Below the pieces are notes generated by a model. It saw nothing but the letters and a program-made list of their open reading frames with translations, made no database searches and had not been told where the DNA came from. The translations under genes were made by a program, and so were the position numbers. From a virus (lineage: Duplodnaviria > Heunggongvirae > Uroviricota > Caudoviricetes): a DNA stretch of 12,178 nucleotides. Shown here in pieces: positions 1 to 12,178 of this stretch; positions within the stretch are counted from its first letter, which is position 1; each line of letters starts with the position of its first letter. Location: the IMG/VR virus record IMGVR_UViG_2563366883_000010, positions 1 to 12,178 of that record; one strand, written 5' to 3'.

Positions 1-60
1 GGTGCCCGGCGGGGTCGGGTTTGTCCTGAAAACGCCCCCCACCCCGTCATACAGCCTCAT
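1..60 (-). CDS. Hypothetical protein, 5' fragment (ATG at 58-60, continues past window start); sits where a terminase subunit would be expected
   Basis: Minus-strand ATG at 60-58 overlaps the upstream stop (TGATG) and is followed by 19 sense codons (MRLYDGVGGVFRTNPTPPGT) to the window edge. Function is a guess from position after HNH. Confidence 0.3.
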   Translation of the reverse strand, partial: MRLYDGVGGVFRTNPTPPGT

Positions 61-242
61 CAGCGATTGCGGAAACATTCCATAACCTCGCGGTCACGGT
101 CGTTTAATCGCGTCGCTGTGATACGTTCTGCGCGTCCTGACGCTTTATCTTTATGCCCTGTTTCCTGTGTCTTCCATGCGTCACGCTGCCTTATAAGTCC
201 ACGGATAAGGCGGTTTTGTTCCCGCTCATTCATCAGCGTCAT
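60..242 (-). CDS. Hypothetical small protein (60 aa)
   Basis: ATG at 242-240 overlaps the HNH 3' end by 17 nt; charged, protein-like composition (MTLMNEREQNRLIRGLIRQRDAWK...); its stop overlaps the next ATG. The SD is weak. The antisense plus-strand ORF 67-480 is S/R/C-rich and looks spurious. Confidence 0.35.
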   Translation of the reverse strand: MTLMNEREQNRLIRGLIRQRDAWKTQETGHKDKASGRAERITATRLNDRDREVMECFRNR

Positions 243-666
243 ACATCCAGTTATTGCGGTTAGCGGCCCGTTCTTCCTCTTCACGAAATCCACCTGCGGC
301 ACGCTTGCTTTTTGTTGCCGGATCAAGCCATTTCGTTTTCTGGTTATGACACGCCTGGCACAATGGCTGATGGTTCCATTCGGGCCAGAAGAGAACATCA
401 TCACCGCCATTAATCGGGATAATGTGATCCACCACCACGGCGGGCGTATATATCCCCGTCTCAAGGCATCGCACGCATAACGGGTTTTTACTCAGATACA
501 TGGCGCGGTATTTGTCCCACTGTCTGGAGTACCCACGCGCGCGGCGGTGTCCTCGTCTGGCATCCTCTGCACGCCATGCCGCCCGCCTGTGCTCCTGACA
601 CTTGCCGGACTTCACGCGCCTGTTACAGCCTGGTTCTGTGCATCGTCTTAATGGTTGCCACGGCAT
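226..666 (-). CDS. Phage-associated HNH endonuclease
   Basis: N-terminal Cys cluster (CTEPGCNRRVKSGKCQEH) and HNH core (VVVDHIIPINGGDD...NHQPLCQACHNQK). ATG at 666 overlaps the connector stop. Confidence 0.85.
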   Translation of the reverse strand: MPWQPLRRCTEPGCNRRVKSGKCQEHRRAAWRAEDARRGHRRARGYSRQWDKYRAMYLSKNPLCVRCLETGIYTPAVVVDHIIPINGGDDVLFWPEWNHQPLCQACHNQKTKWLDPATKSKRAAGGFREEEERAANRNNWMYDADE

Positions 667-962
667 CAGTACACCCCCACATCACGGTAAGCCGTCCAGA
701 GTGCACCAATCGTCATGGGTACGCGTGTTTTTGCGTTATCCGCGACAATCTGGCGATTTTCATACAGGTGAGCGATAAACATCATGCAGCCAATCTTTAT
801 GGCTGGCGTGAACTCCAGCCCGTCATCAAAGCGCCTGCCTATGTGTATCTGGCACGCCTCAAGCGATGCGGCAATGTATCCGCTGATTAACTGGTCTTCC
901 TCGTCGCCATCGATGCGGCAATGGAGTTTCACTTCTTCCAGGGTGATAAGTTCTTCTGTCAT
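666..962 (-). CDS. Head-tail connector protein (gp6-like)
   Basis: 98 aa; N-terminus MTEELITLEEVKLHCRIDGDEEDQLISGYIAASLEACQ is typical of gp6-like connector/DNA-packaging proteins. ATGA overlap with the adaptor gene. Confidence 0.7.
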   Translation of the reverse strand: MTEELITLEEVKLHCRIDGDEEDQLISGYIAASLEACQIHIGRRFDDGLEFTPAIKIGCMMFIAHLYENRQIVADNAKTRVPMTIGALWTAYRDVGVY

Positions 963-1297
963 TTTTCCGCGCCCTCACGACAAAGAATTTCAAGGCGTGT
1001 CCTGGCGGCATCCGGCAGCGGCTGCCCGATGATATTCAGTACACGCCCCGCCAGCGGCCCCGTATTGACCTTTATCCGGCTGGTGGCGTTGATGTCCTTC
1101 CTGTAGCGTATCCATACCCTTACCGTTCCAGTCGCCAGTTCTGCACCCGATGAAATGGCCTCCTTGCTGCTGATCATGTTCACGCTTGCCCAGAGTGTGT
1201 GACCGTCCACCCACGTTTCGAGTATTTCGCCCGTCATGGCTCTGGTCTGTTTCAGGGTCTGAATCGTTACCCTGTCACGCAGTCGCCCTATGTTCAT
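959..1297 (-). CDS. Head-tail adaptor / head closure protein (head-tail joining family)
   Basis: 112 aa from ATG at 1297 (MNIGRLRDRVTIQTLKQ...), which overlaps the portal stop as ATGA. An alternative in-frame ATG at 1339 would overlap the portal by 45 nt and has a poorer SD. Confidence 0.7.
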   Translation of the reverse strand: MNIGRLRDRVTIQTLKQTRAMTGEILETWVDGHTLWASVNMISSKEAISSGAELATGTVRVWIRYRKDINATSRIKVNTGPLAGRVLNIIGQPLPDAARTRLEILCREGAEK

Positions 1298-10746: not shown

Positions 10747-10777
10747 AAGGCATAAAATATTGTTTCATGCCTTTTTT
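10747..10777 (+). terminator. Hairpin with T-run in the int-alpA spacer (possible bidirectional terminator for int)
   Basis: AAGGCAT-13 nt loop-ATGCCTT followed by TTTTTCT on the plus strand; on the minus strand an A-run precedes it and TTGTATT follows. No plus-strand gene reads into it. Confidence 0.35.
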
Positions 10778-10868
10778 CTCGCTATTTAAAGAGTGATTCG
10801 CTAGTGTATAAAAAACCAGTAACACATTAAAAATCAGCTACTTATAAATCTGTACACTTTTTCGCCTC

Positions 10869-10913
10869 TTGTTCGTAGTTGTTCCGCATTGTTGCTCATT
10901 GTTGCACGTTGTA
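10869..10913 (+). repeat. Phased array, 5 x TTGTT(C/G/A) at exact 10-bp spacing, with an adjacent palindrome CGCATA-tccag-TATGCG (10920-10936)
   Basis: TTGTT at 10869, 10879, 10889, 10899 and 10909. The first 25 bp match the reverse complement of 4493-4517 at 22 of 25 positions. Lies 45-90 bp after the int stop. Confidence 0.45.
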
Positions 10914-10960
10914 TCTGTTCGCATATCCAGTATGCGCATACTGAAAAAATACGAAAAAAA

Positions 10961-12178
10961 TTATTTTCTTCTGGCTACTGGTAGCGTGGTTACGTTTTCA
11001 TGTGTTCCCGCCAGTATCCCTAACCGCTCCATCCACATATCCAGCGCATTGCGTTTAGCATCCAGATAACGGGAATGATTATAAACTCGCTGCATTCCTG
11101 GCATCTGGTGGCCTGTAAGCTGCTCCACGACATGCGGATCAACGCCTAAATCGTTCAGCATGGTTGTAAAGGTGCGCCGGATGTCATGCAGTGACCAGTG
11201 AGGGTGATTAAGCCTCCTGTGCGCTAATCTTCCATACTGCGATACGCTGGCCTCCTGTTTCACTGCCCCCAGCAATAAGCCCGTGTGCCTGTTCTGCTCC
11301 ACCAGCTGCGTGACGAACGGCAGGATCGCTTCCGGTATGGGCCGGAATATTGCGACCTTCGTTTTGCTGTGCTCCTTCGGAACGGTCCATAGCATTTCCG
11401 TAAAATCCCACTCCCCGATCTCTGATAACCTCAGTTCTACCGTTCTGGCTCCGAAGACAATCAGGAGGCGGATTAACGCGACGTAGTAAGGGGAAAATAT
11501 TTTTTTATCCAGCGCCTGCAATAACTCGCCCAGTTCTTTGGTGCTTAAGACACGTTCGCTTATATCCGGTTTTTTCCCAACGTCCGCCACGTTCAGATCG
11601 TCCAGAACGTTGCTGATTGCATAGCGCCGCCTACGGCAGAACTTAAGCGCCTGTTTGCACGCCTGTAGCACGAATCCGGCAGTAACAGGCGTTCGCTTTG
11701 CCACCTGGTCAAAACAGGCCAGCCAGTGCCGTAGCTCGCATTTATCCAGCGGCATAGCACCAATCTGCTGTATTACGTGATTATTAAGTCGCCTTTTCAG
11801 GGCGATATAATCCACGCGGTTTTCCTTTACGTAAGACTCAAGCCAGTAGGTGAGCGCATCGCCAACCGTTACGGGCTTTAACGCTTCCTGTACGGTGTAA
11901 TTCATCTCATGACGTGGATTTTTCCCCTCAGCCAGCCATGTGCGACACTGTGCGGCTTTTTCCCTGGCTGCTTTCAGGCTCAGATCAGGATAACTTCCCA
12001 GCTTAATGCGTTCGGGTCGTGTCTCCCTTCCCGTTCCGGCCCTGTATGTGAAATACCAGGTCAATTTCCCTGATGTTAAATATTTCACGCTCAGGTTTCC
12101 GCCATCACTATAAAACGTGTTTTTCTCCGCTGGCTTACCATGAAGTTTCCTTAGCAAGGTATCGCTCAGTTTGTTCAT
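10961..12178 (-). CDS. int: Tyrosine recombinase, P4-type integrase
   Basis: 405 aa; N-terminal arm-binding domain (FYSDGGNLSVKYLTSGKLTWYFTYR) and C-terminal catalytic region (HDIRRTFTT...GHQMPGMQRVYNH, presumptive Tyr in RVYNHSRY). The ATG is the last codon of the window, so the true start could lie further upstream. Confidence 0.9.
   Translation of the reverse strand: MNKLSDTLLRKLHGKPAEKNTFYSDGGNLSVKYLTSGKLTWYFTYRAGTGRETRPERIKLGSYPDLSLKAAREKAAQCRTWLAEGKNPRHEMNYTVQEALKPVTVGDALTYWLESYVKENRVDYIALKRRLNNHVIQQIGAMPLDKCELRHWLACFDQVAKRTPVTAGFVLQACKQALKFCRRRRYAISNVLDDLNVADVGKKPDISERVLSTKELGELLQALDKKIFSPYYVALIRLLIVFGARTVELRLSEIGEWDFTEMLWTVPKEHSKTKVAIFRPIPEAILPFVTQLVEQNRHTGLLLGAVKQEASVSQYGRLAHRRLNHPHWSLHDIRRTFTTMLNDLGVDPHVVEQLTGHQMPGMQRVYNHSRYLDAKRNALDMWMERLGILAGTHENVTTLPVARRK

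Follow-up and report, generated by a model that had tools for sequence, protein, structure and literature searches.

What kind of mobile element joins the integration and replication genes of a satellite to the head genes of a tailed phage? The question is raised by a 12,178-nucleotide (nt) stretch of viral DNA (Caudoviricetes; IMG/VR virus record IMGVR_UViG_2563366883_000010, positions 1 to 12,178), here called the window. The original prediction, made from the letters alone, was that the window is a satellite with a head module of its own, akin to phage-inducible chromosomal islands of the capsid-forming kind (cf-PICIs). This is borne out by comparison with EcCIEDL933 (CP-933C of E. coli EDL933), the element on which cf-PICIs were defined (Alqurainy et al., bioRxiv 10.1101/2022.09.08.507074): the two are 97.7% identical in DNA over window positions 1-5788, from the gene for the single-stranded DNA-binding protein (SSB) through the open reading frame (ORF) after the HNH endonuclease gene, and 379 of the 385 residues of the window capsid protein are identical to PDB 9GYI (E 7.6e-254). 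Taken together, the sequence comparisons described below make us highly confident that the window covers some 12.2 kb of a cf-PICI belonging to the EcCIEDL933 lineage, the full length of which is about 15 kb and which resides in tqsA on a chromosome like that of E. coli.

In the direction of transcription, the features of the head and packaging module are as follows.

4278-4540, minus strand: putative leader of the head and packaging operon, containing an inverted repeat at 4368-4415 and, at 4314-4285, a hairpin plus U7
3120-4277, minus strand: HK97-fold major capsid protein, 385 amino acids (aa) (TIGR01554, 4.3e-88)
3089-3110, minus strand: G+C-rich hairpin directly 3' of the capsid stop codon
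2507-3064, minus strand: HK97-family prohead serine protease (PF04586, 5.8e-48; TIGR01543, 6e-54)
1294-2505, minus strand: HK97-family portal protein (PF04860, 9.6e-91)
959-1297, minus strand: head closure protein Hc1 of the HK97 gp7/SPP1 gp16 type, the 'head-tail adaptor' of the cf-PICI papers (PF05521, 9.1e-23; phrog_25)
666-962, minus strand: head-tail adaptor Ad1 of the HK97 gp6 type, the 'head-tail connector' of the cf-PICI papers (PF05135, 8.4e-12; phrog_40)
226-666, minus strand: HNH endonuclease, a packaging cofactor of HNH-dependent cos terminases (PF01844, 2.7e-08)
60-242, minus strand: orf60, 60 aa, at the position of 'hypothetical gene 1792' of EcCIEDL933 (phrog_3173, 2.5e-35)
1-59, minus strand: first half of the spacer (123 nt) that separates orf60 from terS, a candidate cos region

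Profile searches (Pfam, TIGRFAM, and PHROG) gave family matches for every module of the window, and the searches that had been proposed for the head proteins placed the capsid, protease, portal, closure, and adaptor proteins in HK97-type families. Every ORF of the window is intact, and the head and packaging proteins are 94.6-100% identical to those of EcCIEDL933 (capsid, 98.4%; protease, 99.5%; portal, 99.3%; closure, 94.6%; adaptor, 100%; HNH, 97.9%; and orf60, 96.7%), with closure being the most divergent head protein. The equivalence of orf60 and gene 1792 was assigned by counting from the capsid gene as 1786. The EDL933 capsid and 9GYI differ from the window capsid at exactly the same six positions, and 9GYI is therefore taken to be the EcCIEDL933 capsid, which forms T=4 shells of 47.5 nm as determined by cryo-EM (bioRxiv 10.1101/2025.02.11.637232). 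The window capsid also carries the published S93xGxxAD maturation motif and the residues D257, K290, D295, E319, and R345 that have been mutagenised.

Read directly along transcription, the genes run capsid, protease, portal, closure, connector, and HNH, as the original prediction had stated. It had further described this order as the reverse of that in phages; a permutation is the better description. ST64B has the order terS-terL-portal-protease-capsid-Ad1-Hc1-tail, whereas the window has capsid-protease-portal-Hc1-Ad1, such that the portal-protease-capsid and Ad1-Hc1 blocks are each permuted without a strand flip, and HNH keeps its phage-like place just upstream of terS. In HK97-type phages, HNH lies across cos from the terminase genes. 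The novelty implied by the term non-phage gene order was overstated, as capsid-protease-portal-head connectors followed by hnh-terS-terL has been published as the conserved order of proteobacterial cf-PICIs (Alqurainy et al., bioRxiv 10.1101/2022.09.08.507074). From SSB as far as the ORF that follows HNH, EcCIEDL933 has the gene order of the window, and it also shares the pattern of the junctions. Five consecutive junctions had been read as overlapping stop/start codons of the ATGA or TGATG form; five consecutive junctions are indeed tight, at -17 to +1 nt, but this form is seen at no more than three of them, namely portal/closure (ATGA), closure/adaptor (ATGA), and adaptor/HNH (TGATG). Protease and portal are joined by TGAtATG (a 1-nt gap with no overlap), and HNH and orf60 overlap by 17 nt, or by 8 nt if the second ATG is used.

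Capsid and protease are separated by a 55-nt gap that contains the G+C-rich hairpin, the position of which is kept in LR881103.1, a relative with 66% capsid identity. In the 260-nt leader, the hairpin plus U7 ends 7 nt ahead of the capsid ATG and sequesters the sole AGGA, and the 17-nt inverted repeat lies further upstream; the z-scores obtained for the leader are -3.96 and -3.32. The leader hairpin plus U7, the inverted repeat, and the post-capsid hairpin suggest that the head operon may be under attenuator or antitermination control.

We then compared the window with the published definitions of cf-PICIs, namely the 11-component model of SatelliteFinder, the description by Alqurainy et al., and bioRxiv 10.1101/2025.02.11.637232. 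SatelliteFinder reported 969 cfPICIs, and elements of Type A, which have the full set of 11 core components, are present in 13% of the genomes of Enterobacteriaceae; its cf-PICI model forbids tail and holin genes, and its PICI model forbids portal, adaptor, and connector genes. Nine of the 11 core components are found in the window, which also obeys the forbidden-component rule; the other two are terS and terL, the place of which is occupied in the source scaffold by a gap of 5095 Ns followed by a 250-aa C-terminal part of terL. The components present include the PICI-type left half (integrase, AlpA-type regulator, and primase-replicase), an own capsid, prohead protease, and portal, the component that rests on PF05521 and PF05135 (phrog_25 and phrog_40), and an HNH endonuclease inside the packaging module. 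The conserved proteobacterial order is seen directly, and the relatives, at about 15.1-15.6 kb, fall within the size range of about 10-18 kb.

Other classes of element fit less well. None of the window ORFs searched in Pfam and PHROGs matched tail, holin, or lysis families, and none is annotated in the elements and flanks of four closed E. coli relatives, the 5.1-kb gap of the source being unread; a tail module, a lysis cassette, and the order terS-terL-portal-protease-capsid, which define a complete HK97-like prophage, were accordingly not found. A classical PICI lacks portal, adaptor, and connector genes, all three of which are in the window. The classical Gram-negative PICIs EcCICFT073 and EcCIED1a share with the window the left half (int-alpA-early region-primase-ori-SSB-PerC) and alpA-dependent helper induction, but they lack genes for a capsid, a portal, neck proteins, and TerL, and instead redirect capsids made by the phage. 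P4-like satellites, which make their heads from the capsid protein of the helper, whereas the window element has its own, share with it only the P4-type integrase, the C-terminal domain of the P4-family primase, and a CI/C4-like RNA, and no window ORF matched the sid, psu, delta, or epsilon families in Pfam or PHROGs.

The packaging genes had been predicted to lie just left of the window, and this holds in near-identical elements. In the four closed E. coli genomes, the sequence left of the window continues through the rest of the 123-nt spacer, terS (P27 family), terL, and a 93-aa ORF into the chromosome, and on the right side the integrase gene adjoins the chromosome; the islands in tqsA measure about 15.1 kb, and those at roxA/phoQ about 15.4-15.6 kb. 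Both terS and terL are intact in relatives that are 97-98% identical to the window, and terS would begin 65 nt beyond it. The best match among complete E. coli genomes is strain SHP24, at 98% identity across 97% of the window; parts of the window were found in 1966 of 5426 such genomes, and in 63 of them the match covered at least 80% of its length. The tqsA-type relatives SHP24 (NZ_CP104788.1) and NZ_CP074781.1 share the attachment site and head module of the window, along with its integrase (at 99% identity) and its primase (at 98-99.5%). Exact matching of a 45-mer from the variable region to genome contigs led only to an element of Shigella flexneri in which parts of the window are present at 94-96% identity, and which is not the source.

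The source itself is less tidy. The window is 100% identical to GCA_000351025.1, scaffold KB732454.1, the integrase side of which runs into tqsA and pntB. On the other side, in a region that spans positions 14280-21158 of the source sequence, window position 1 is 2 nt from the 5095-N gap, so the window's own terS and 5' terL are unseen. Beyond the gap are the 3' part of terL and the 93-aa ORF, followed by phoQ rather than the 5' half of tqsA, and this stretch is 95.7% identical to the tqsA relative, compared with 98.7% for the rest. The phoQ gene flanks the other attachment site (roxA/phoQ), which is used by a sister cf-PICI in 194 genomes. As a side observation, a 23-nt direct repeat, TGACTACACCAGTGACTACACCG, with an internal GTGACTACACC duplication, lies just inside both ends of the tqsA-integrated relative L001 (4949-4971 and 19851-19873). 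We considered it as the crossover core and set it aside: it is more likely an arm-type site of the integrase, and the core, judged by eye only, appears to be approximately TGCTGTTAT.

These flanks bear on three other explanations. A cf-PICI that was disabled or rearranged in the source strain, through recombination with a phoQ-linked second cf-PICI (an inversion of about 0.5 Mb) or an insertion in terS/terL, and that is no longer autonomously packaged, would account for a 5.1-kb gap at a place where terS and 5' terL of the relatives take up just about 1.3 kb, as well as for the junction with phoQ and the drop in identity beyond the gap. However, two loci that carry head modules with about 97% identity are what tends to collapse in short-read assemblies, and a scaffolding misjoin explains the same data; moreover, all window ORFs are intact and close to those of the functional prototype. 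We consider a disabled or rearranged copy unlikely. The simplest reading of the assembly is that the strain probably has two cf-PICIs, the head modules of which, about 97% identical, were not resolved by the assembler. Several points count against the main reading: in this copy, neither terS nor the 5' two-thirds of terL is seen; the post-gap part of terL is joined to phoQ instead of 5' tqsA, so the copy could be rearranged or interrupted; this variant is not known to have a helper phage, and its closure protein differs from that of the prototype at six of 112 residues; and the details of induction are extrapolated because the replication and early modules differ from those of the prototype.

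Could the window instead derive from a phage? A decaying cryptic prophage, i.e., an inert HK97-like prophage that has lost its tail and lysis genes, would fit the HK97-type families of all head proteins and the historical labelling of the EDL933 copy as cryptic prophage CP-933C (a note in the ST64B record). This is very improbable, since the same ~15-kb architecture with intact, tightly packed ORFs recurs in many genomes and at no fewer than two attachment sites, the int-alpA-primase modules are of PICI type rather than phage immunity or lysis modules, and the nearest true phage capsids are at most about 40% identical among the matches listed (about 34% for ST64B). For the prototype, inertness is refuted by high-frequency mobilisation: each of nine packaging-gene mutants abolished transfer (severely reduced in the case of gene 1792), and the helper was unaffected (bioRxiv 10.1101/2022.09.08.507074). 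That the window is the head region of a complete HK97-like prophage, with terminase, tail, and lysis genes outside it, is harder still to credit. It draws only on the fact that the window stops before terS and that the source gap is unread, whereas the integrase side enters tqsA/pntB, the four closed relatives pass from terS, terL, and the 93-aa ORF straight into the chromosome, and the gene order is unlike that of phages. The original prediction had named tail and lysis genes beyond the window, or conserved synteny with complete phages, as signs of an ordinary prophage. The former are absent from the flanks of the four relatives, and a whole-window megablast against 50,697 phage records gave no syntenic complete phage; the records with the best capsid matches (59-66% identity) are of 15-16.5 kb and satellite layout, e.g., vB_KppS-Ant and Pasteurella Pmp8.

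Among HK97-like temperate phages are HK97, HK106, and ST64B, with which the window shares an HK97-fold capsid, protease-dependent maturation, a portal, neck proteins of the gp6/gp7 type, and HNH-assisted cos packaging. Unlike these phages, the element has no tail, lysis, or lysogeny-switch genes. The prototype capsid is T=4 and has no covalent cross-link, in contrast to T=7 in HK97-like phages.

The record vB_KppS-Ant also bears on the cos site. LR881103.1 ('Escherichia phage vB_KppS-Ant', 16,548 bp, linear) was deposited as a phage, but has a cf-PICI layout: terS-terL, then int, and then primase, capsid, protease, portal, closure, connector, HNH, and a small ORF. Its annotation includes a 765-aa 'tape measure protein' right after terL, and Pasteurella phage Pmp8 (15.3 kb) looks similar in layout. 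The linear ends of LR881103.1 fall in the spacer homologous to window positions 1-59, with the right end aligning to about window position 23. By this comparison, cos would lie in the orf60-terS spacer that starts at positions 1-59.

The remaining genes of the window, apart from the antisense-RNA cassettes treated further below, are listed here from the integrase toward the head operon.

10961-12178, minus strand: tyrosine integrase of the P4/CP4-57 type, with arm-binding and catalytic domains (PF13356, 1.4e-18; PF00589, 4.1e-16)
10398-10586, minus strand: AlpA-family regulator/excisionase (PF05930, 5e-18; 98.4% identical to EcCIEDL933 AlpA)
9940-10128, plus strand: 62-aa ORF, convergent on alpA (phrog_21027; 100% conserved in EcCIEDL933)
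9718-9897, plus strand: YlcI/YnfO, Arc-like ORF, convergent on alpA (family support; relatives annotate a YlcI/YnfO protein here)
8261-8581, minus strand: 106-aa ORF with no assigned function (phrog_15327, 2.3e-70; its ATG overlaps the stop of the second Icd-like ORF by 8 nt)
7955-8254, minus strand: DUF4222 protein (PF13973, 7.6e-17; its stop overlaps the primase start, ATGA)
6141-7958, minus strand: primase/helicase of the D5/P4 family (Pri-Rep), 605 aa (D5_N, 1.5e-13; DUF5906, 6.6e-11; Pox_D5, 2e-12; TIGR01613 P4-family, 5.3e-28)
5904-6128, no strand: putative replication origin, with GGTGAACAGT iterons around an AT-rich core (~6074-6100)
5608-5853, minus strand: 81-aa ORF (phrog_1231; overlaps the SSB start by 4 nt)
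5201-5611, minus strand: SSB (PF00436, 4.2e-17; 100% identical to EcCIEDL933 SSB)
4918-5190, minus strand: PerC-family regulator (PF06069, 6.5e-45; 97.8% identical to the EcCIEDL933 copy)
4569-4793, minus strand: 74-aa ORF (phrog_1957)

The genes that the original prediction had named (integrase, AlpA, D5-family replication protein, capsid, protease, portal, adaptor, connector, and HNH) all gave strong family matches and lie on the minus strand. The accompanying statement that all genes are on one strand holds for each of these, but not for the two small family-supported plus-strand ORFs of the early region; minus-strand genes that had gone unnamed are PerC, DUF4222, several small conserved ORFs, and orf60. 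The integrase ATG coincides with the last base of the window, and the gene callers used for the source and relatives start 12 nt further out (409 aa), which is probably the true start. The integrase is 99% identical in amino acids to those of tqsA-integrated relatives and 91% identical to that of EcCIEDL933. AlpA is the helper-responsive inducer in Gram-negative PICIs.

The replication module is one of the parts in which the window departs from the prototype. Its primase is 98-99.5% identical to those of the tqsA-type relatives, and only the first ~143 aa match (69%) the replicase of EcCIEDL933, a 710-aa DUF927-type protein in place of the 605-aa D5/P4-type protein of the window. The iterons noticed in the sequence are real: ten copies of GGTGAACAGT with no more than one mismatch occur in both orientations immediately 3' of the primase stop, whereas chance would give just 0.59 copies over the entire window, and the observed count was reached in none of 200 shuffles. 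Because the replicase differs, the iterons of EcCIEDL933 presumably differ as well. The attachment site differs too, tqsA in the window versus roxA/phoQ in EcCIEDL933, the latter being a 15.4-kb element of E. coli O157:H7 EDL933.

Downstream, PerC is an accessory gene common in Gram-negative PICIs. PerC-like genes were reported in EcCIEDL933 and EcCICFT073, and for those of PICIs the reports describe either silencing of LEE expression or the lack of any effect on it (PMC11773190). The 74-aa ORF is flanked by two terminator-like hairpins (4895-4912 and 4541-4558; a 24-nt repeat with 96% identity), like a small cassette between PerC and the head operon. Just upstream of the plus-strand ORFs is a perfect, operator-like palindrome, TGTGTAATG-ACA-CATTACACA (9669-9689). 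A 247-aa minus-strand ORF at 9597-10340, called in the source assembly and in EDL933, had no match in Pfam, PHROG, or PADLOC and is overlapped by the supported plus-strand ORFs; it is probably spurious. A PADLOC scan of ten small or unassigned window ORFs gave no match to a defence system.

The early region differs from the prototype in a further respect. Between window positions 8574 and 9459, on the minus strand, are two tandem antisense-RNA cassettes of the C4/CI type that score above the Rfam gathering thresholds.

9031-9459, minus strand: cassette 1, with an isrK/seqA-like element and terminator (9459-9383), a C4/CI-like RNA (9361-9274), and an Icd-like ORF (9219-9031, 62 aa)
8574-9000, minus strand: cassette 2, with an a1b1 target element (9000-8951), a C4/CI-like RNA (8883-8796), and an Icd-like ORF (8744-8574, 56 aa)

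In cassette 1, the C4 match scores 75.4 bits (gathering, 45), isrK scores 61.8 bits (gathering, 50), and the Icd-like ORF matches NF033153 at 8.3e-16; in cassette 2, C4 scores 72.6 bits and c4-a1b1 46.8 bits (gathering, 46.7). The loop CUUCAGUG of cassette 1 (9317-9310) is complementary both to upstream AACUGAAG (9418-9411; ACUGAAG) and to CACUGAGG across the Shine-Dalgarno (SD) sequence that serves the ATG at 9219. Likewise, the loop CCAGAUGA of cassette 2 (8838-8831) is complementary to CAUCUGG (8950-8944) and to UCAUCUGG (8763-8756) across GGGAG, the SD sequence that serves the ATG at 8744. The loop and target sequences differ between the cassettes but co-vary within each. The stop of the second Icd-like ORF overlaps the start of the 106-aa ORF, which is followed by DUF4222 and then, through ATGA, by the primase. 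All parts of a P1 immI/P4 CI-type cassette are therefore present, i.e., a C4-fold RNA, an upstream target, an Icd-like ORF with a target over its SD sequence, and coupling with the gene that follows, the regulatory function being predicted.

Matches to C4 and isrK in Gram-negative PICIs were earlier noted as relatives of P4 CI and seqA (PMC10111431). In immI of P1/P7 (c4-icd-ant) and in P4 CI/seqA, a C4-fold RNA likewise lies between an upstream target and an SD target of a short Icd-like ORF that overlaps the next gene, and the 106-aa ORF of the window occupies the position of ant in P1 immI. Unlike P1/P7 immI, the window has two tandem cassettes with different loops and targets, upstream of a DUF4222-primase operon, and no Ant homologue; here, the function is predicted. 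The cassettes are also variable within the lineage. At the gathering threshold, SHP24 among the four relatives has cassette 2 only, and NZ_CP074781.1 has neither cassette and a different Ash/Icd region. A permissive Rfam threshold gave no C4 RNA in the early region of EcCIEDL933, and the cassettes are therefore not a general cf-PICI feature.

Annotation of this region calls for some care. On the strand that carries the isrK/a1b1 and C4 RNA genes, ORFs annotated as 'Ash family' and as long 'Icd-like' proteins (219/185 aa and 168/154 aa; window 8574-9690) read across these RNA genes, so the Phage_ASH (Pfam) and phrog_29966 signal may partly reflect the conserved RNA genes. The N-terminal parts of the 219-, 185-, and 154-aa Ash/Icd-like ORFs were treated with caution, and the short Icd-like ORFs are given instead.

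A possible reading of the two cassettes, which we put forward tentatively and regard as somewhat doubtful, is that they are a two-key RNA immunity layer over the replication operon (the second Icd-like ORF, the 106-aa ORF, DUF4222, and primase), acting alongside or instead of induction by AlpA only. In such a layer, each C4 RNA would mask the SD sequence of its own Icd-like ORF, control of the operon would follow from translational coupling, and co-resident satellites might be excluded.

How would such an element work? Four steps have been shown for EcCIEDL933 and may be extended to the window on the strength of the 94.6-100% identity of the head and packaging proteins (AlpA, 98%). An HK97-like cos helper that uses HNH for packaging (HK106 and HK446 for the prototype) would trigger alpA. 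The island's capsid, protease, and portal would build small T=4 procapsids. HNH, the 60-aa protein, TerS, and TerL would act at the cos site that the island itself carries, cutting and packaging no DNA other than that of the island. Closure and adaptor would then finish a tail-less head, which would take a phage-made tail. For the prototype, induction and transfer require alpA and a helper (HK106 or HK446), and transfer still occurs with helper capsid mutants but not with helper tail mutants (bioRxiv 10.1101/2022.09.08.507074); EcCIEDL933 releases tail-less capsids, and its adaptor and connector proteins control tail compatibility (bioRxiv 10.1101/2025.02.11.637232). Features of the window suggest further steps. 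The primase-helicase may fire the iteron origin just downstream of its own gene. The C4/CI-type RNAs may gate translation of the Icd-like ORFs and, by coupling, of the operon that ends in the primase. The leader hairpin plus U7 and the inverted repeat may regulate entry into the late operon. The capsid-first order, the post-capsid hairpin, and the close abutment of the genes downstream may together keep the ratio of capsid to minor proteins high.

Collectively, the reading of the window as a cf-PICI is correct, and the element, its gene order, and its biology have been described in print and are therefore already known. Only two points are mildly new, namely the combination of modules into this mosaic and the pair of antisense-RNA cassettes located upstream of the replication genes. 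The main value of the case is one of calibration, in that a reader without tools recognised a cf-PICI from raw sequence, and this reading holds down to identity with the prototype whose structure has been solved. For the biology of the family, the source assembly hints at two cf-PICIs with near-identical head modules in one genome, which would be a substrate for recombination as well as a trap for assemblers. The window also documents mosaicism, as the same head module is combined with a different integrase and attachment site, replicase, origin, and an early region with two C4-type RNA cassettes that EcCIEDL933 lacks. Since cf-PICIs make their own heads and take only tails from the phage, one island can cross species boundaries via the tails of different phages.

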